10,638 nucleotides of DNA, taken from contig JBDRKP010000024.1 of the NCBI GenBank assembly GCA_043813875.1, positions 1 through 10,638 on the forward strand. Reading direction: 5' to 3'. Both the position numbers and the translations under genes were made by a program. This document shows, in pieces, positions 2,212 to 10,638 of this stretch (the stretch's first letter is position 1; each line of letters opens with the position of its first letter). Below the pieces are notes generated by a model. It searched no databases and was not told where the DNA came from. It saw nothing but the letters and a program-made list of their open reading frames with translations. This DNA is from an archaeon. GTDB taxonomy: Archaea; EX4484-52; B79-G9.

Positions 2212-2241
2212 TGTCACGAGAAAATGCCAGGAAGAGCCCTG

Positions 2242-2392
2242 CTGGAATCGGCATTGCGATATCTAAAAAAAGAAGCCCGGAATTCCGAAAAAAAAGATTT
2301 CATCCCGGATAATCTCATCTGGCCACCCCAAAATATAAAAAAAGAAAGCCATAGGCCGTTTTGCTGCCGTATTCTCCTCTCATGCGCCCCAT
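2242..2392 (+). repeat. Degenerate direct-repeat copy (pseudogene fragment) of 4177-4328
   Basis: Aligns by eye to 4177-4328. The last 65 nt (2328-2392 vs 4264-4328) match at 57/65 without gaps and include an exact 18-mer, TAGGCCGTTTTGCTGCCG. It encodes LESALRYL (cf. LASALEYL) and then has a +1 frameshift in an A run. Confidence 0.9.
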
Positions 2393-2513
2393 CGATATAT
2401 CTTGTTTTCAGTATTTTTGTGCATAAAACATTCCGGCTAAAGCCTGAATTCCCGGATTTCTCAGCCTGCTTGCAGGAAATCTGTTGCATGCCTTTTTTCA
2501 ATCGCAATCGTCT

Positions 2514-2744
2514 TCAGTCAATGAGCCTCAAAAACTCTTCGCGTGTCAGGCCAAGCTGCCTGATGATCGCTCTCAACGTGCCTTTTGCGATCCCGGCATG
2601 GTTAGGTACGGTGATTCTTCGGTGCGGCTCATCTTTTTGCCTTAGGATTATGTGGCTGCCGGTCTGGTGGTCTGCCTCGTAGCCCAGCCGGACTATAGCC
2701 CTGACTATGTCTTTTGAACAAAGAGAGGCAGGCAATTTAGGCAC
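2514..2744 (-). CDS. hicA: HicA family toxin (type II TA, dsRBD-like mRNA interferase)
   Basis: 76 aa, GTG start. LGYEADHQTGSHIIL contains the catalytic GSH; ITVPNH and IAKGTLRAIIRQLGLTREEF are typical HicA motifs. Overlaps hicB by 8 nt. Confidence 0.95.
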   Translation of the reverse strand: MPKLPASLCSKDIVRAIVRLGYEADHQTGSHIILRQKDEPHRRITVPNHAGIAKGTLRAIIRQLGLTREEFLRLID

Positions 2745-2952
2745 TCACATCGACCACGTCTTCAGTGATTGTTGGGGGTATAGGCTCATTGTGTTTTTTC
2801 AGGCTCGCAAGATATCCCGCTACCGCCTCTTTGATGTTCTCAAGCGCTTCTTGTCTTGTCTTTCCCTGCGAAATGCATCCTGGCAGGGTTGGACATTCTG
2901 CCACATAAATCCCGTCTTCATCAAGTTCTATGATTATCCTGAATTTCATCAT
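2737..2952 (-). CDS. hicB: HicB family antitoxin (short form, no C-terminal DNA-binding domain)
   Basis: MMKFRIIIELDEDGIYVAECPTLPGCISQGKTRQEALENIKEAV is a classic HicB N-terminal domain. Start moved from 2976 to ATG 2952 (or 2949) because of the GTGAT SD-like motif and the TATA box at 2980-2987. Confidence 0.93.
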   Translation of the reverse strand: MMKFRIIIELDEDGIYVAECPTLPGCISQGKTRQEALENIKEAVAGYLASLKKHNEPIPPTITEDVVDVSA

Positions 2953-2979
2953 GATCACTAAAATAATAGGTATCATTGA

Positions 2980-2987
2980 TATTTAAA
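2980..2987 (-). promoter_or_regulatory. Putative archaeal TATA box for hicB-hicA
   Basis: TTTAAATA on the minus strand, about 28 nt upstream of ATG 2952. Confidence 0.6.
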
Positions 2988-3052
2988 AATTTGCTGTCAT
3001 CTTCAGCAAAGCCATCAGATTAAATCCTATTGTTCTGTATATGCCCGTGGCC

Positions 3053-3135
3053 ATGAAGGAAAGAACCTGATGGTGATGATCCCGGCCTGCAACGAAAAAA
3101 AGACAATATAATTGGCGATTAAAAAGATTCCGGCC
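3053..3135 (+). pseudogene. N-terminal remnant of a GT2 glycosyltransferase
   Basis: The frame from 3061 reads KNLMVMIPACNEKKTI*LAIKKIP, matching the GT2 N-terminus xSVxIPAYNEExTIxxVIxxIP. In-frame TAA at 3109-3111; the ATG at 3053 is out of frame; no further GT2 similarity downstream. Confidence 0.75.
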
Positions 3136-3382
3136 GCCGGGACGTTCTATTCCTTATCCTGGTTTGAAGATACAAACTTGCCGAAAACCGGCTATTTCAG
3201 ATACCATATCTGCTCAGGAATTGCAGGATCAGCGTCACCACGGTCATGCACAACACATCCAGGGCTCTTTCCTTCACATATCCCTGCCTACGTATTTGGC
3301 AATCTCCATGTCACGTCAAACCGCAGCTGGTGGCAAAAAATAAGCAGTCATATCCCGTAGAGCTCAGCGCCGCCATCATCAA

Positions 3383-3670
3383 TTATTTCAAGCCAATTAG
3401 TTTCCGGAATTTGTTTGTGATCTTGTCTGCCTTTTCTTCGCTGGGGGCAATCACCCTAAAGGAAAGATAATCTTCACCAGGATAGTTAGATATTAGAATA
3501 GAGTAACCATGCCCCGTTAATCTGTATCTTCCATCTTGAGGATCAAAATCACTTTTAAGATATTCAGGGCATTCTTTCAATTTTTCTTCCAAATCTGTAT
3601 CAGGAACGACTGTGCCCTCAGTTAAAAACGAGTATCTGCCGTTTTCTAAACAGGACTTATACGTATGCAT
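3383..3670 (-). CDS. Hypothetical protein (95 aa)
   Basis: ATG preceded by a strong SD (AGGTGAT) and an AATATAAA box at ~3716-3723. Normal globular composition. Divergent from the gene at 3805. Confidence 0.75.
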   Translation of the reverse strand: MHTYKSCLENGRYSFLTEGTVVPDTDLEEKLKECPEYLKSDFDPQDGRYRLTGHGYSILISNYPGEDYLSFRVIAPSEEKADKITNKFRKLIGLK

Positions 3671-3804
3671 ATGATATCACCTGCGCATTCTTTCTATTGC
3701 TAATGCACCGATAGGTTTATATTGTTTCATGTTCACCGGCATGTGGCAGCCCCAAAATATTTAAAAGCGTGTCTGCTTTAGGATGTTGTTCTCAGGTGTC
3801 TTAT

Positions 3805-4290
3805 ATGTCCAGTGATATCAGCGAAGCCATATCCTGTATCGATAAGTTCTTTGAATACAAAAAGGATAAACTGAAAAACAACGATAAGCTCTATCATCTC
3901 TCTGTTGCAGTCGCGTACGCCGTCCATGAGATAGACAAGGATAACTATTCATCTCCGCCCTGCTGCGTTGCCGGAGTAATACTGATGACAGCAAGGGACA
4001 TCACAGGCATAGAATCTCTCGATTATGTGATCAATCCAAGAGAGCTTGAAAAAGAAGGCCTCTGCAATTCACGCAAAATAAGATATGACTACGATAGGTT
4101 CAGGAAGGACACAAAGAAGCTCTCCATCAATGATATCCTGGATCTTTGCAGGCACAGGTCAGATGAGGATTTCCGCCTGGCATCGGCATTGGAATATCTT
4201 GAGAAGAAGCCCGGAGTTCCGCCAAAAAAAGATATCCTCGAGGGTTATCATTGTCCGCCCGCTCCAAAATACAAAAAAAGAAGGCTCTAG
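3805..4290 (+). CDS. Hypothetical protein (161 aa) resembling a single TFB/TFIIB cyclin-box repeat, with a basic C-terminal tail
   Basis: Start moved to ATG 3805 (SD AGGTG at 3794-3798; TTTAAAA at 3760-3766). SSPPCCVAGVILMTAR and NPRELEKEGLCNSRKIRYDYDRF align by eye with the TFB repeat motifs KSPxGxAAAALYIA and [23 protein letters not shown]. The CDS is well supported; the fold call is tentative. Confidence 0.6.
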   Translation: MSSDISEAISCIDKFFEYKKDKLKNNDKLYHLSVAVAYAVHEIDKDNYSSPPCCVAGVILMTARDITGIESLDYVINPRELEKEGLCNSRKIRYDYDRFRKDTKKLSINDILDLCRHRSDEDFRLASALEYLEKKPGVPPKKDILEGYHCPPAPKYKKRRL

Positions 4291-4406
4291 GCCGTTTTGC
4301 TGCCGCATTCCCCTCTCGGGCGCCCCATGAGTCCGCGCCAGAACATATTTAATGCTTCAGGAAAAATAACAATCCTGCCGGCGTCTATGAGCGACAGAGT
4401 GATGAT

Positions 4407-4844
4407 ATGATGGAACAAAAAATACTGACATTTGAAAATGATGCCATGCCGGGCATTGAAAAATATTTCGCCATGAAACAGAACTACTACCCGGATCTGT
4501 GCGAAGTCAGGAAAGATACTGTCCTGACGCTCATCAGCATCTATCGTGAAGACAAAAATAGATGGGTGATCACGCCTGACATTGTCGATTTTATCAAAAT
4601 GAATGATCAGGATCTGTACAGTAAATATGATAACTGCGACAGCATGCATCAGGAAAAATATCTGATCAGGAGCGTAGGGCAGAACCTGCAATTGACATCG
4701 AAGCTGGGATTCATAAAAAAAGACGGGTTTGTATCTCAATATAGATTGAAAGACGAATACAGACACATGATCGATGAGATAGAGAAATGCGTGAAAGGCA
4801 CCGTATGCGGGGACGATAAATCAGAAATTTGCCGGAAGGGCTGA
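4407..4844 (+). CDS. Hypothetical protein, probable winged-helix DNA-binding domain
   Basis: 145 aa with SD GAGTGATGAT. Helix VLTLISIYRE, WVITPDIVDFI, recognition-like helix IRSVGQNLQLTSKLGFIKK and wing DGFVSQYRL fit a wHTH pattern. Confidence 0.6.
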   Translation: MMEQKILTFENDAMPGIEKYFAMKQNYYPDLCEVRKDTVLTLISIYREDKNRWVITPDIVDFIKMNDQDLYSKYDNCDSMHQEKYLIRSVGQNLQLTSKLGFIKKDGFVSQYRLKDEYRHMIDEIEKCVKGTVCGDDKSEICRKG

Positions 4845-5061
4845 TTCTGGCCACAGGGTGCTTTTGTAAAGACCATCTTGAATGCGCCAAAGGACCCGGC
4901 GCAGTACATGTGAAAGAGAATCGCAGGCGATTTTTTGCGCGTGACGCGGAGAGCATCAACAAATCTTCTTTGCGGATATGTCCGGGCATCACCCCCCTTT
5001 GTGAGAAAGATATGCAACGGCTGTGTCTGTTGAAAATTCCCTGTATGTTGTAAAGGGCAGT

Positions 5062-5377
5062 CTACATTTCTTCAAGGATTGCATTGATTTTTGTTTTTAA
5101 ATAAGGGATCTCATCTTTTATGACAGTCCAGACGCGTTCAAGATTCACATCGAAATACGCATGAATCAGCTTGTCTCGCATCCCTGCAATGTCTTTCCAC
5201 GGGATTTTCGGATACTTATCTTGTTGCTTCGCCGATTATCTCTATCCCTCTCATGACTCCATACTGTGTTTTAGCATCTGCCATAAACTGCTCTTTGCTC
5301 ATATCAGATGTAAATTCCTCTATCAGAGCGATGTTTTTCAAGATATCTTCAAGGAATATTGTGATATCTTTTTTCAT
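5062..5377 (-). pseudogene. hepT: HEPN/DUF86 (HepT-like) ribonuclease toxin, frameshifted
   Basis: ATG 5377 gives MKKDITIFLEDILKNI...RGIEIIGEAT, then TAA at 5218-5216. Another frame from 5220 continues DKYPKIPWKDIAGMRDKLIHAYFDVNLERVWTVIKDEIPYLKTKINAILEEM* (TAG 5064-5062) with an intact RX4HXY motif. The usual KxIPxxxK linker is missing at the break. Confidence 0.92.
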
Positions 5378-5673
5378 AACATCGATACCTCTTCTCTTAG
5401 TATCTGGTCTTTTAACCGCGGATGTATAGTGCAATACTCAACAATATCTACCTTCTTTCCAACACGCTCTTCCAACTCTCTCTCAATCCTCACGATATCA
5501 AGCAGGCTTTTCTTCCCCCTTATCTCGACAAGGATATCGATATCGCTTCCTTTCTTCTGTTCCCCGCGCGCATAAGACCCGAAAATGCCTGCCCTTACGA
5601 CGCCGTTCTTTTTGAGGATGGGAATAATCGCTTTCCTGATCTCGTCTAATCTTTCGTCATTTTTGATCGTCAT
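5374..5673 (-). CDS. mntA: Minimal nucleotidyltransferase (MNT, MntA-like antitoxin)
   Basis: 99 aa. GIFGSYARGEQKKGSDIDILVE is an exact GSX10DXD motif; also VGKKVDIV. ATGA overlap with the HEPN gene. Confidence 0.93.
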   Translation of the reverse strand: MTIKNDERLDEIRKAIIPILKKNGVVRAGIFGSYARGEQKKGSDIDILVEIRGKKSLLDIVRIERELEERVGKKVDIVEYCTIHPRLKDQILREEVSML

Positions 5674-5863
5674 GCATTCTAGTTGTCCGCGCTCATTAAC
5701 AAATCTTGACAGCGCCCTTCCCGTCCGTGCCTAAAAATATCCTGCATATCAAGGGCAAAAAAAGCACACATTGACATTACGGACTTGCATGATGACTCGT
5801 GCAATATCAGAAAAGCAGGAAAAACCGCAGATATTGGCCTGTTAGCCTTGCAAGAAAGTGATT

Positions 5864-6013
5864 TTATTCCTTGATTGTGCCATTGGGCTTATAGAATGAT
5901 TCGAACACAGACACTTCTTCTGGCGTTTTGCCTGGACCAAGCCTGCCCTGGAAGTATTTTTCCAGCCCGATTTCTTTCATTGTCTTGTAAACAACACGGT
6001 TACTATGAGTCAT
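5864..6013 (-). CDS. Small hypothetical protein (49 aa), absent from the ORF track
   Basis: MTHSNRVVYKTMKEIGLEKYFQGRLGPGKTPEEVSVFESFYKPNGTIKE*. SD-like GTGATGAT just upstream (same motif as before ORF 4407) and TATATATA at 6057-6064 with an A-rich BRE-like flank. Confidence 0.6.
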   Translation of the reverse strand: MTHSNRVVYKTMKEIGLEKYFQGRLGPGKTPEEVSVFESFYKPNGTIKE

Positions 6014-6035
6014 AGTATCATCACTTTTGTGATGA
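6001..6035. promoter_or_regulatory. Two adjacent perfect inverted repeats (candidate operators or RNA hairpin)
   Basis: TACTATGA-G-TCATAGTA (6001-6017) is immediately followed by TCATCAC-TTTT-GTGATGA (6018-6035). Together they cover the start codon and SD of the 49-aa ORF. Confidence 0.55.
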
Positions 6036-6122
6036 GTATTATTTCATTAGAACGGGTATATATAGTTTATCTGTTCCATCCCATCCGCCATGCTGAAGTG
6101 TAACTGCGGTTGGAAGACGGGT

Positions 6123-6536
6123 TTAACGGCTGGGCCGTCTCTGGGGTATGAGCGCTACAACCTCTTTTGGCGCGCCGTAACAGGAGACAAACTCAAAGAA
6201 GTCGCGTTCAGGGATATCCGGTGCATTGACAGGGGTTTCCCCTGGACTGTATGCCTCGGATCCGACTGGTTTTTTCTCTCTTAATTTGATGCCTGCACTG
6301 TCAGTTTGATCGATAATTATGGGATATTCCGGATCCATGCCGTTTTGCAGGATATACGCCTCGTCGAAGACATACGGGTTCATCGATACTCTTCCTCTGT
6401 CTGTCGGCCTTGCTATGATCAATAAAAGGTACGAATTATCCACTGCATGCAGTTGATCCGGCAACATTGCGGTTGCTGGCCGGATCTGCAAGCTCTCATG
6501 CAAAGATGCCTTCCTTCGCCAACCGTCACCAATCAT
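6123..6536 (-). CDS. Hypothetical protein (~137 aa)
   Basis: Open frame with protein-like codon use in the 3' half. ATG 6536 follows GAGTGGTG (alternative GTG start at 6542). No recognisable motif. Confidence 0.5.
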   Translation of the reverse strand: MIGDGWRRKASLHESLQIRPATAMLPDQLHAVDNSYLLLIIARPTDRGRVSMNPYVFDEAYILQNGMDPEYPIIIDQTDSAGIKLREKKPVGSEAYSPGETPVNAPDIPERDFFEFVSCYGAPKEVVALIPQRRPSR

Positions 6537-6556
6537 CACCACTCACAAGTGAAACA

Positions 6557-7865: not shown

Positions 7866-8587
7866 AATTTACAGCCATAATGCCCGCATACATGAAAGAG
7901 GACGTCATAAAGATAGCACTCTTTGAGACAGAAAAAGTCCTGAAGACCTTCGGCATGCCCTACGAGATAATAGTGGTAGACGACGGATCGAAAGACCAGA
8001 CAAGGAAGAAAGCTTCAGGATACAAATCAAAACACGTAAAAGTAGTAGGCTACAAGAAAAACCGCGGCAAGGGCGCCGCCCTGAAATACGGCTTCAAGTA
8101 CGCGAAAGGCGACCTCATAGCCTTCATCGACGCTGACACCGACTTAAGGCCTGATCAGCTGGAGCATTTCCTCTACTACATGTCGATAGCAGATGCCGAC
8201 GTAGTCATAGGATCAAAAGTCCACCCATACTCGAAAGTCAAATACCCTCCTGTAAGGAGATTCCTCTCAGGCGCATACAGGACCTTGAACAGGATCCTCT
8301 TCAACCTGGACGTCCACGACACCCAGGTAGGCCAGAAGGTCTTCAAAAGAAAAGTCCTGGAAGACATCCTGCCAAGAGTGTTAGTCAAGCGCTACGCCTT
8401 CGACCTCGAGCTCCTTGTAAACGCGCACCACAGGGGCTACAAGATTGTGGAGGCGCCGATAACCCTGAACTATGATTTCAGCCAGAGCGCAGTAAACCTG
8501 CGCGCAATCTGGCACATATTTGTAGACACGTGCGCAATATTCTACAGGCTGCGTATCCTCCATTACTACAACGGCAGGAAAAAATGA
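7862..8587 (+). CDS. GT2 glycosyltransferase (dolichyl-phosphate hexose synthase-like)
   Basis: AIMPAY, EIIVVDDGSKDQT, NRGKGAALKYG, IAFIDAD (DxD), DTQVGQKVF and YAFDLELL. ATGA overlap with the flippase. Confidence 0.95.
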   Translation: MKFTAIMPAYMKEDVIKIALFETEKVLKTFGMPYEIIVVDDGSKDQTRKKASGYKSKHVKVVGYKKNRGKGAALKYGFKYAKGDLIAFIDADTDLRPDQLEHFLYYMSIADADVVIGSKVHPYSKVKYPPVRRFLSGAYRTLNRILFNLDVHDTQVGQKVFKRKVLEDILPRVLVKRYAFDLELLVNAHHRGYKIVEAPITLNYDFSQSAVNLRAIWHIFVDTCAIFYRLRILHYYNGRKK

Positions 8588-8672
8588 AAATCATCTCATT
8601 CGCTTCGCTCATTCGAAGCTTTCCGACGTGTGGTCGTAAATCATCTCATTCGCGTCATTCATTCTAAGCTTT
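8588..8672. repeat. Imperfect 35-bp direct repeat (2 copies, 50-bp period)
   Basis: AAATCATCTCATTCGCTTCGCTCATTCGAAGCTTT (8588-8622) vs AAATCATCTCATTCGCGTCATTCATTCTAAGCTTT (8638-8672): 31/35 identical, with a 15-bp spacer. Confidence 0.9.
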
Positions 8673-8935
8673 TCTTGTCATGCTGGGAAATCCGCCAAAA
8701 CATATTAAATTTGCCTGCGCTAAATATGCATTATGGACATTGAAAAATTGGTCTCAAATGGGGAATCCGATACACTTGAATTCAAGGAATCCCTTTCCTT
8801 GAAAGACGAGATAGGAGAGGGAGTGTCTGCGCTCTCCAATACAAGCGGCGGGATGATTCTTGTCGGAGTTACTGATAGCAGGGAGATTATCGGGGTAGAG
8901 ATCGGCAAAAAGACGCTTGAGGATCTGGCCAATTA

Positions 8936-9036
8936 TAGTTGACGTCGTTACTAGCTGGACAAATATGACCAATAAACCAACAGACGTCAATCTATATGGA
9001 AAAGTCATGTAGTCTAAAAAGTTATGACTTTTACTA
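8936..9036. mobile_element. 101-bp TA-flanked palindromic insert (MITE-like; possibly two tandem mini-units)
   Basis: Flanked by TA at 8934-8935 and 9037-9038; ends TAGT...ACTA. Unit 1 (8936-8994) has arms TAG-TTGACGTC-GTT / AAC-A-GACGTCAA-T-CTA. An internal TA follows at 8995-8996. Unit 2 (8997-9036) has arms AAAAGTCAT / ATGACTTTT. Confidence 0.75.
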
Positions 9037-9150
9037 TACATCAAGACACATACCGACAACCACGTTTTCCCGAAAATATCTCTTGTGAACATAGAGTGGA
9101 AGGAGATTGTCGTTATCGAGGTAAAGGAGAGCGATGAAAAGCCTGTTTTT

Positions 9151-9218
9151 TTCATTGTATTATATGCCGACAATGAAAAAGCTTGAAATCCACTAATTGC
9201 ATCAAAATTTCATGATTC
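9151..9218. mobile_element. 68-nt hairpin-rich insert bounded by a TTCA direct repeat
   Basis: TTCA at 9151-9154 and 9219-9222. Perfect 11-bp inverted repeat TTTTTCATTGT (9148-9158) / ACAATGAAAAA (9170-9180). CTTGAA (9182-9187) is complementary to TTCAAG (9219-9224). Removing it restores KPVFFKGRAY. Confidence 0.65.
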
Positions 9219-10280
9219 TTCAAGGGCCGGGCATACGTCCGGGTGGGAAAATCAAGGCACAAGCTATCAGCCTCCGAAATAAGAAATCTGGCAAAGGAAT
9301 CCGGGCAGAAAGTACATTGGGATGAACAAGCGTGCAAAGACGCCACCATGGATGATATTGATTGGAATTTTGTAAAAGACTTTTTCGTAGCAAGATACGA
9401 GTCTTTGAGCGCGGCAAAGGTTACAGGAAACGGGAATGATTTACTTCGGGCGCTAAACTGCATCAGGGATGGCAATCCGACAAATGCGGGAATTCTTTTG
9501 TTCGCCAAAAACCCTCAGAAGTTTTTTGCAAATGCATATATTGCTATGGCCAGATACAAAGGAAAGCATGAAGGAATAGAGCGCATGGACTATAAGGAAT
9601 TTGCAGGCAATTTGTTTAGCCAGATTGACGGTTGCGACAGCTACATAAAAGAACATACTGCGATGATGTCGCGCATTCTGCCGCAAAGGGTTGAGAGGGA
9701 GGATATACCGGAATACTCATGGTTTTCTGTCAGGGAACTGGTAACAAATGCCGTCTGCCACAGGGATTACTCAGATCAGGGCTCAAAAACCATAGTCAAG
9801 ATGTTTGGCGACAGGATTGAATTCTATAACCCGGGCGGCCTGCAAAAGGGCATAACCCCGAATAATATCGCTGAGAGGCAATATTCAAGAAATCCTGTGA
9901 TCACAAAAGTTCTTGCAAAGGTCAAATATATTGAAGATCTCGGCGAGGGCTGGGACAAAATTCTAAAGGAGCATAAAGCGCATCCTCTTAGTCCGAAATT
10001 GCCGCTGATAAAGGCGGATGAGTACAGTGTTCTTGTGGCAATGTACTCCACCAGGGATAAATTCGAAAAAGGCAGTTTTGGGCTTAACGACAGGCAAAAG
10101 CTGGCAATCGGGTATGCAAGGGGCAAAGGGAAAATCACTAATGAAGAATATCAGAAAGCGGGAAATACTACCAAAAAAACAGCTACCCGCGATTTGCAGG
10201 ACATGGTAAAAAGAAGCATCTTTATCAGGACGGGCAGGACAGGAAAAGGCGTATACTACACTCTGAATCCCTCATTTAAA

Positions 10281-10310
10281 GGGGACATAAGGGGACAAAA
10301 GGAGACATAG
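10281..10310 (+). repeat. Three imperfect 10-bp tandem repeats at the 3' end of the AlbA gene
   Basis: GGGGACATAA GGGGACAAAA GGAGACATAG; the last unit supplies the stop codon. Confidence 0.8.
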
Positions 10311-10346
10311 TTTGAAATGGAGGTATGATGGCAAGGCTTTCAGCAA

Positions 10347-10638
10347 GATTGGGACAGGATTATTGAAGAAACCAGGAACCATCCCTTAAAGCCGCCAATG
10401 CCCAAAATTGAGGATACCGCTGCAGGCGTTATCTGCAAAGCTTCCGGTACGTGTTGGCGAAGTTGCGGTTAACGCGAAGTTGCTGGAAGCGAAACTTAAT
10501 GAGCGGCAAAAGAAGCTTGTGGAGCTTGTAAAGAAAAAATATGAATTAGGCATTGCTGATTATAAAGACATTTTTCCGCTCATCCCTGAGCGAACTTTAC
10601 GCAGCGACCTTGAAACTCTCGTTAAGCTCAAAATATTA
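10347..10638 (+). pseudogene. Frameshifted C-terminal fragment of a second AlbA/RecG-like paralog (runs off the window)
   Basis: DWDRIIEETRNHPLKPPMPKIED (cf. GWDKILKEHKAHPLSPKLPLIKA upstream). After a frameshift near 10430-10460 it reads LNERQKKLVELVKKK...DYKDIFPLIPERTLRSDLETLVKLKIL (cf. LNDRQKLAIGY...TATRDLQDMVKRSIF). No N-terminal portion or in-frame start. Confidence 0.85.

Follow-up and report, generated by a model that had tools for sequence, protein, structure and literature searches.

The window analysed here, a stretch of 10,638 nucleotides, is the complete contig C24 of an archaeal genome of 1.64 Mb (90 contigs, 91.5% complete). Its 3' part contains a gene that is split into three pieces by two short inserts, here named E1 and E2 after the repeat families to which they belong, and a fragment of a paralog follows. 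The features are these:

8733..8935, plus strand: gene piece 1, the start codon, 67 codons and 2 nt of codon 68, with the SLFN_AlbA_2 domain
8934..8935, no strand: left TA, the target dinucleotide of E1; the empty site in paralogs has a single TA
8936..9036, plus strand: E1 core, 101 nt, hairpin A and hairpin B, termini TAGT...ACTA
9037..9038, no strand: right TA, either the duplicated target or the element's own end; net gain 103 = 101 + 2
9039..9150, plus strand: gene piece 2, the remaining part of AlbA_2, in frame +1 relative to piece 1
9148..9154, no strand: T-run and CA target of E2, TTTTTCA, part of the T7CA at 9146-9154 and pre-existing
9155..9222, plus strand: E2 copy, 68 nt (nhmmer E 3.1e-17), equivalent to 9151-9218 through the TTCA ambiguity
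9219..10310, plus strand: gene piece 3, a linker, HATPase_c_4, a winged-helix-like C-terminal tail and the stop
10329..10638, plus strand: 3' fragment of a paralog, frameshifted (tblastn and blastn)

Removal of 8936-9038 (103 nt, insert 1) and 9151-9218 (68 nt, insert 2) joins pieces of 203, 112 and 1092 nt (8733-8935, 9039-9150 and 9219-10310) into one frame of 1407 nt, which encodes 468 amino acids followed by a stop and has no further stop. The junctions of the reconstructed protein read LEDLANY-IKTHTD and EKPVF-FKGRAYVRVG, and the host gene is free of any stop or frameshift other than those brought by the two inserts. The original prediction of a 468-residue frame with natural junctions after two deletions is confirmed by this reconstruction and by the gap-free paralog alignment described below, and its description of the inserts as AT-rich is borne out by GC contents of 33% (insert 1) and 29% (insert 2), against 45% in the joined gene. 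Piece 1 matches the Pfam family SLFN_AlbA_2 (E 8.8e-14, 52.5 bits against a cut-off of 25.3), piece 2 holds a second, weak match to PF04326, and piece 3 matches HATPase_c_4 (E 2.3e-16, 60 bits against a cut-off of 26); with AlbA_2 followed by HATPase_c_4, both above the curated cut-offs, the host gene is a member of this family. Within piece 3, a frame of 355 codons remains open, with GTG at 9243, and the best relatives of this piece outside the genome are 53-57% identical at the protein level. The insert lengths do sum to 171, a multiple of 3, as had been pointed out, but we read this sum as a coincidence because stops are present in each insert. The tryptophan of the IEWKE motif, previously suggested to signal early decay, is indeed unique to this copy; however, the same column varies in the other paralogs, which have D or E, so it may be at most a weak sign of decay.

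The genome contains 12 matches to AlbA_2 (PF04326). In a protein alignment with nine paralogs from the same genome, no gap occurs at either junction, and the closest two paralogs read LEDLANYIKT... and EKPVFFKGKAY... at these points. At the DNA level, identity to the paralogs on contigs C37 and C38 is ~85% across the first ~395 nt (334/394 and 332/395), and the inserts appear as clean gaps of 103 and 68 nt. The alignment to homologs that had been proposed for the two junctions thus leaves both of them gap-free against intact paralogs, in protein and in DNA. Protein identity among these paralogs is 80-92% in the first ~120 residues and ~30% beyond. Contigs C37 and C38 both start with a sequence identical to the final 120 nt of contig C24, and the end of C37 is a 97.6% match to 10429-10638; because of these matches, this gene, the intact C37 and C38 paralogs and a C38 paralog broken by E1 probably form a single tandem array. 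The host gene would then be one of an array of about 12 AlbA_2 and HATPase_c_4 paralogs in a small-genome archaeon, and such an array is a place where insertions would be expected to persist. A dN/dS comparison with intact orthologs had also been proposed; the closest DNA match in the family is 70% identical (no close ortholog was found there), and only a branch count among three paralogs was possible. Across the N-terminal 170 columns, branch-specific nonsynonymous to synonymous changes stand at 12:11 on the branch of this copy, 11:12 on that of C37 and 8:22 on that of C38, which gives no clear relaxed selection in a test of little power.

At the empty site of insert 1, the C37 and C38 paralogs read AAY-TA-CATC with one TA, whereas the filled site is flanked by TA on both sides, and the boundary is accordingly ambiguous by 2 nt (the TA repeat). 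The net insertion fits duplication of TA or, equally, an element that has its own terminal TA and makes no duplication. The insert brings in-frame AGT-TGA, with the stop two codons downstream, and causes a +1 frameshift. When 11 copies of E1 were aligned with their flanks, all began with TATAG, and their likeness spanned TATAGT to ACTATA, with unrelated sequence outside. These ends form a terminal inverted repeat that is perfect over 6 nt and then matches at ~8/11 positions, read by eye; with a perfect repeat of only 6 nt, a MITE of the TA-duplicating kind is a tentative assignment.

BLASTN of the inserts against the genome, a check that had been suggested, identified both as multi-copy repeats, a fact that the original prediction could not see. 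For E1, 49 profile (nhmmer) hits were found in the 1.64-Mb genome, 20 of them full-length, at 43 loci. Full-length BLAST matches lie on eight other contigs at 89-100% identity, and the copy in the window is identical to C57:31864-31968 at 105/105 positions. The copies at C38 and C20 are also identical to each other when aligned, with different flanks; because identical copies sit in different flanks, the sequences indicate that the E1 family moved recently. Among 41 genomes searched, E1 is present in 16, comprising 7/7 others of the genus, 11/15 of the family and some in two other families of the order; the relatives of the source genome have genome sizes of 0.5-2.2 Mb. E1 is short, non-coding and multi-copy, as MITEs are.

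Both inserts had been described as able to fold into two adjacent hairpins, and both do so. For E1 the fold has an energy of -27 kcal/mol (z -3.9, 0/200 shuffles as good), but for insert 2 the energy alone is not significant (z -1.7, 12/200 shuffles as good). The stems of E1 also covary. Across 29 distinct copies, drawn from 31 rows (20 of this genome and 11 of relatives, including 2 duplicates), pairing is seen in 90% of stem cells, against 29-41% when the partners are shifted by 1-3 columns. In 11/34 stem pairs both partners have changed, whereas the shifted controls give 2-5. These figures are somewhat overstated, since one of the rows supplied the structure and the copies are related to one another, but the alignment plainly contains many different stem sequences. 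Longer forms of E1 exist as well, all with the same two end-hairpins: a form of ~155 nt carries an extra two-hairpin segment of ~50 nt at the central TA, in a form of ~145 nt a further small hairpin module has entered loop B at TAAAAA, and forms of 203-217 nt combine the central segment with the loop B module.

The boundary of insert 2 is ambiguous by 4 nt (TTCA). In the C37 and C38 paralogs the empty site reads GTTTTTTTCAAG, whereas here T7CA is followed by 68 nt that close with TTCTTCA. The insert consists of hairpin 1, hairpin 2 and this terminal TTCTTCA, and its ends are compatible with a target plus the element's own end or with a 7-nt duplication; the 3' repeat has one mismatch (TTCTTCA against the target TTTTTCA), a point that counts against the reading proposed below. 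The T7CA that was hit lies within codons for V-F-F-K, and the insertion shifts the frame by +2 and has its own stop. The absence of the insert is not confined to this genome, as C37, C38 and G012:C119, a homolog from another genus, all align on both sides of insert 2 with an overlap of 5-7 nt and no insert. In the genome, E2 has 45 profile hits at 37 loci, and its best relatives, on many contigs, show 86-91% identity over 57 nt. The family unit of ~70-77 nt comprises a T-run, hairpin 1, an A-run, GCTTG, hairpin 2, CATGA and a T-run with Y-A; units are often in tandem, and the stem of hairpin 1 shows compensated variation by eye. Most copies are preceded by T5-Y-A, and E2 also ends in T5-Y-A. 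The hairpin-2 half reaches up to 96-98% identity in genomes of a sister genus. E2 has palindromes near both termini, likewise E1, a feature that the two elements have in common with PATEs.

The two families are nested in each other: some E1 variants carry an E2-like module in their loop B, and one match to E2 falls within a long E1 variant. As for the order of the two insertions, E2 probably came first and E1 later, because the E2 copy has diverged from all of its relatives (at most 91% identity, a loop 6 nt shorter and an altered end) while E1 is identical to another copy. A diverged E2 source copy could mimic this order.

When the elements are excised exactly, an uninterrupted long frame results at 3/20 full-length E1 copies:

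This gene: 70 + 49 codons, the right side being cut by E2
C38:5540-5643, a second AlbA_2 paralog: 162 + 288 codons
C11:9489-9591: 88 + 107 codons

The protein interrupted on C11 is PD-(D/E)XK / DUF1016-like, named by eye only. By a looser criterion, which asks for 60 or more open codons on each side and on the same strand, 3/43 E1 loci look genic (two flagged loci plus this gene), and 3/37 E2 loci are flanked on either side by long open frames, compared with 1321/2000 random positions (~66%); the other flagged E2 loci, at C20:12195 and C23:35722, are possibly genic. Among the 12 E1 hits in relatives (11 loci), none is inside a gene; the only one flagged occupies the TA of a TAA stop codon, between two genes. 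Both element families are thus kept out of genes and strongly depleted from ORFs. In the second AlbA_2 paralog E1 lies at residue ~162, against ~68 here, so that the insert lacks the conserved position expected of an intron. All three genic E1 copies are sense-oriented and two of them interrupt AlbA_2 paralogs, which could hint at more than chance.

We propose that two MITE-like insertions, from two families, made a pseudogene of a dispensable paralog in a tandem array, and we put the probability of this reading at about 0.85. Both elements would have been moved by trans-acting enzymes: E1 would have landed on a TA dinucleotide, with the TGA and the +1 shift as the result, and E2 in the T7CA of the V-F-F-K codons, with the +2 shift and a stop of its own. 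The host gene would tolerate such hits since its paralogs make it dispensable, and the second hit would have been neutral after the first had killed the gene. It is also observed that, apart from the inserts, there is no stop or frameshift, so decay is not otherwise visible, which speaks against a pseudogene. The original prediction that very small palindromic elements had hit this gene twice stands in that the inserts are dispersed repeats whose empty sites are found in paralogs; the idea of a new class does not, since two different families of a known kind are present, MITEs or small mobile repeats, as far as these are covered in the relevant parts of PMC2229807 and PMC3119063.

The sections of PMC2229807 on small prokaryotic MITEs describe them as <200 bp, AT-rich, with TA at their ends and mainly intergenic; among them, Correia elements occur in forms of ~107 and ~155 bp, and RUP is tied to an IS630 transposase and TA targets. 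According to the portion of PMC11602168 that deals with archaea, the MITEs of archaea are 88.9% intergenic, and the genomes with the highest MITE density include those of DPANN. E1 resembles Correia/NEMIS of Neisseria and RUP of Streptococcus pneumoniae, as these are presented in the part of PMC2229807 used here, in its length of ~105 nt, its ~155-nt form, AT-richness, TA ends or target, multiple copies, mostly intergenic placement and stable fold, and RUP is linked there to an IS630-family transposase, while an IS630-type element is also resident in the present genome. By the same account (PMC2229807), Correia and RUP differ in having bacterial rather than archaeal hosts, and Correia elements have an inverted repeat of 24 bp rather than a perfect one of 6 nt; E1 folds as two side-by-side covarying hairpins in place of one long end-to-end stem; the likeness is one of form, and no sequence relation is claimed.

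A second likeness is to the PATEs and SMR-A of Haloquadratum walsbyi, which, in the sections of PMC3119063 concerned with them, are archaeal, transposase-free, ~110 bp or less, with near-terminal palindromes and a strong target preference, as are E1 and E2. They often lie inside other mobile elements (PMC3119063, same sections), as E2-like modules lie within E1 variants, and the position of E2 3' of a fixed oligonucleotide, T5-Y-A, adds to the likeness. PATEs and SMRs are described there (PMC3119063) as making no duplication, whereas E1 is flanked by TA on both sides, and, in contrast to what is set out for PATEs and SMR-A, the hairpins here are unrelated to the single IS200-type fragment of the genome, in which no TnpB was found. 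The palindromic elements of Rickettsia (RPEs), in the passage of PMC2229807 devoted to them, are likewise small palindromic repeats inside protein-coding genes; however, RPEs are in frame and are translated with the host protein (PMC2229807, same passage), whereas both E1 and E2 cause frameshifts and contain stops.

The resident IS630-type transposase, encoded at C62 (DDE_3, with a frameshifted or overlapping two-ORF layout), is a candidate for mobilising E1. Its element has at least 4 copies and the ends CTAGTACC... and ...GTCACTAG, which fall within CTAG, the context that TA duplication would give, and at least 4 other contigs terminate in copies of it. BLAST of E1 against the genome gave no match on C62, and the ends of E1 share little with those of the IS630-type element beyond a TAGT-type start; this comparison of ends is not convincing for the IS630-like element as the parent of E1. 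Pairs of E1 end-modules in the genome lie no more than ~460 nt from each other, and no transposase-bearing copy that could be an autonomous parent was seen. The sole Y1 transposase match, located where contig C84 ends, is fragmentary, and its GC-rich hairpin is unrelated to those found here; TnpB (PF07282) has no match in the genome (91.5% complete). A relation of the hairpins to a resident IS605-type transposon is thus not supported. For E2, the search of the genome gave no candidate enzyme.

The covarying hairpins suggest recognition of structure, in single-stranded DNA or RNA, which would fit PATE-like elements, as portrayed in the relevant part of PMC3119063, more closely than classic MITEs. 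A plain DDE-transposon model does not call for the covarying stems or the conserved loops of E1. It is conceivable, although we regard it as improbable, that E1 and E2 are structure-recognised hairpin elements moved by an enzyme outside the known IS200/IS605 or DDE types, and that their clean excision or bypass would make them reversible switches in defence-type paralog arrays. The features behind this reading are the covarying stems, the conserved loops, a shared theme of GCTTG, hairpin and CATGA, the T5-Y-A or TA targets and the mutual nesting.

Sequence data from the environment bear on the question of whether the inserts are ever lost. We examined Logan contigs of public runs labelled groundwater metagenome, at a depth of ~2-8 (largest run share 0.32). 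A 212-nt contig from an RNA library, X3 (8881-9092), keeps E1 and both gene-specific flanks; a contig of X4 (8894-9098) also bridges E1 and both flanks; and a contig of X1 (8975-9249) runs from inside E1 through piece 2 and across the entire insert 2, each with 0 differences. Insert-bearing molecules therefore occur in the RNA library, which may also contain DNA. A search for insert-less junctions had been proposed, and the contigs were examined for them: no such joint is present among the listed contigs of 4 runs aligned to 8500-9700, but these are only contigs at a depth of ~2-8, with large parts uncovered and rare variants dropped, from which rare forms could escape.

These data weigh on the possibility that the inserts form a reversible DNA switch, lost precisely by transposase excision or by deletion between direct repeats, so that the gene would cycle off and on. 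Direct repeats do flank both inserts (TA/TA and TTTTTCA/TTCTTCA), recombination between them restores the exact ORF, and the remaining ORF is intact; trace-free removal of transposons by repeat-mediated deletion has been proposed in the Haloquadratum comparison, in the section of PMC3119063 on this point. However, deletion works poorly on a repeat of only 2 nt, the gene would need to revert twice, the joint is absent from the contigs listed above within the limits of their depth and their loss of rare variants, and the strong depletion of both families from genes means that genic insertions are not readily tolerated. A switch of this kind is accordingly improbable.

Archaeal introns with a bulge-helix-bulge (BHB) motif occur in protein-coding genes such as cbf5, and the original prediction had raised mRNA introns, or a removable switch, as an explanation of the inserts. 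The genome encodes a tRNA-splicing endonuclease (PF01974 at C67, E 1.4e-27), and splicing is therefore possible in principle; as in the cbf5 case, a short insert breaks an archaeal ORF and an endonuclease gene is present. Bypass at translation would formally be possible too, by ribosome hopping between matched codons, and such pairs are available (TAT 8934 to TAC 9037, and TTC 9151 to TTC 9219), although any target duplication yields matched codons automatically. Both inserts are strongly structured as well, with the reservation on the energy of insert 2 given above. In contrast to cbf5-type introns, the inserts lack a BHB and a conserved position, they belong to dispersed repeat families whose copies have unrelated flanks, and E1 is kept in the RNA-library contig. 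The missing canonical BHB motif had already been conceded, and the scan agrees: of 18 registers per junction, tested register by register around the 5' junction with the partner set by the insert length, none reached the 4-bp central helix, the best having 3/4 with flanking helices of 0-2 bp. An Rfam search of 8850-9300 gave five matches, all far under the gathering scores. The positions of the inserts differ between paralogs, and because the copies of each family have unrelated flanks, exon-intron pairing cannot be a family property. The 212-nt RNA-library contig retains E1 with both junctions. Both families avoid ORFs, which counts against splicing or bypass because tolerated genic copies would then be common. 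These results give no support to the proposed mRNA introns or to removal as a switch, and excision from the RNA or bypass in translation is very improbable.

An assembly artefact, in which repeats were mis-threaded into one of several near-identical paralogs, might be suspected from the ~85% identity of the N-terminal 400 nt to two paralogs, the overlapping contig ends and the repetitive nature of both inserts, but its probability is close to nil, because independent contigs from three runs and at least 2 studies bridge E1 and insert 2 with their flanks at 0 differences.

The tempting claim that this archaeal gene contains mRNA introns, or micro-elements of a new class, is unsupported, and it is removed by this analysis. 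In its place, two cases of filled against empty sites fix exactly where the elements of two MITE-like families end and which sites they target; both families are abundant in small-genome groundwater archaea and may be undescribed. The covarying hairpins and the mutual nesting are the only features that go slightly beyond the textbook. For annotation, knowledge of these elements avoids split-gene calls and explains contig breaks, and it is useful for anyone seeking the enzymes that move such elements.

E1, the 101-nt TA-flanked two-hairpin repeat, is present within or between genes other than the one under study, both in the genome containing the window (G000) and in that of a relative (G001):

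G000:C38:5540-5643, E1 copy splitting a second AlbA_2 paralog (162 + 288 codons)
G000:C11:9489-9591, E1 copy splitting an ORF of 88 + 107 codons
G001:C58, L016:1501-1603, E1 copy between two adjacent genes

In the second AlbA_2 paralog, E1 lies at a different residue from the E1 in the window's gene, and this copy is identical to that at C20:16535-16638. The product of the C11 ORF, judged by eye, looks like a PD-(D/E)XK or DUF1016-type nuclease. In the relative, the insertion used the TA within a TAA stop codon; E1 takes the place of this stop, and the ORF upstream thereby grows from 293 to 295 codons.

E1 itself also contains other elements, as seen in the following copies:

G000:C4:5516-5660, E1 variant
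G000:C83:11340-11484, E1 variant
G000:C30:12707-12855, E1 variant
G000:C26:8070-8529, E1 variant

These variants carry a small GCTTG-hairpin-CATGA module at a TAAAAA site within the loop of the second E1 hairpin, and a 460-nt variant contains a match to E2, the ~70-77-nt double-hairpin repeat; they are elements nested inside elements.

Transposase sequences were located at two sites in the same genome:

G000:C62:11787-12995 (L022), IS630-type element with two overlapping ORFs
G000:C84:3171-3335, IS200-type Y1 transposase fragment at the edge of its contig, with a GC-rich hairpin after it

The ends of the IS630-type element fall within CTAG, and its overlapping ORFs likely reflect a programmed frameshift. 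Because contigs C63, C47, C46 and C82 terminate in copies of it, this element is multi-copy and assembly-breaking. The 142-nt stretch adjoining the Y1 fragment occurs again on C86 and C18.

Within the window, both strands of 2224-6542 contribute to a group of six ORFs, 134-173 aa long, flanked by a methyltransferase and a polysaccharide-synthesis/glycosyltransferase pair; a Pfam search of these ORFs at E <= 0.01 returned no match. Downstream of the gene under study lies a further partial gene:

window 10329-10638, frameshifted 3' fragment of a further paralog

The contig end (10519-10638) is the same as both C37:1-120 and C38:1-120; therefore, the AlbA_2 paralogs probably form a single tandem array, which broke the assembly. 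Sequence comparison of three paralogs (window 8733-9150, G000:C37:1311-1800 and G000:C38:3341-3830) revealed 80-92% protein identity across the first ~120 residues, falling to ~30% beyond, which suggests that recombination or gene conversion placed a common N-terminal cassette on divergent C-terminal halves.
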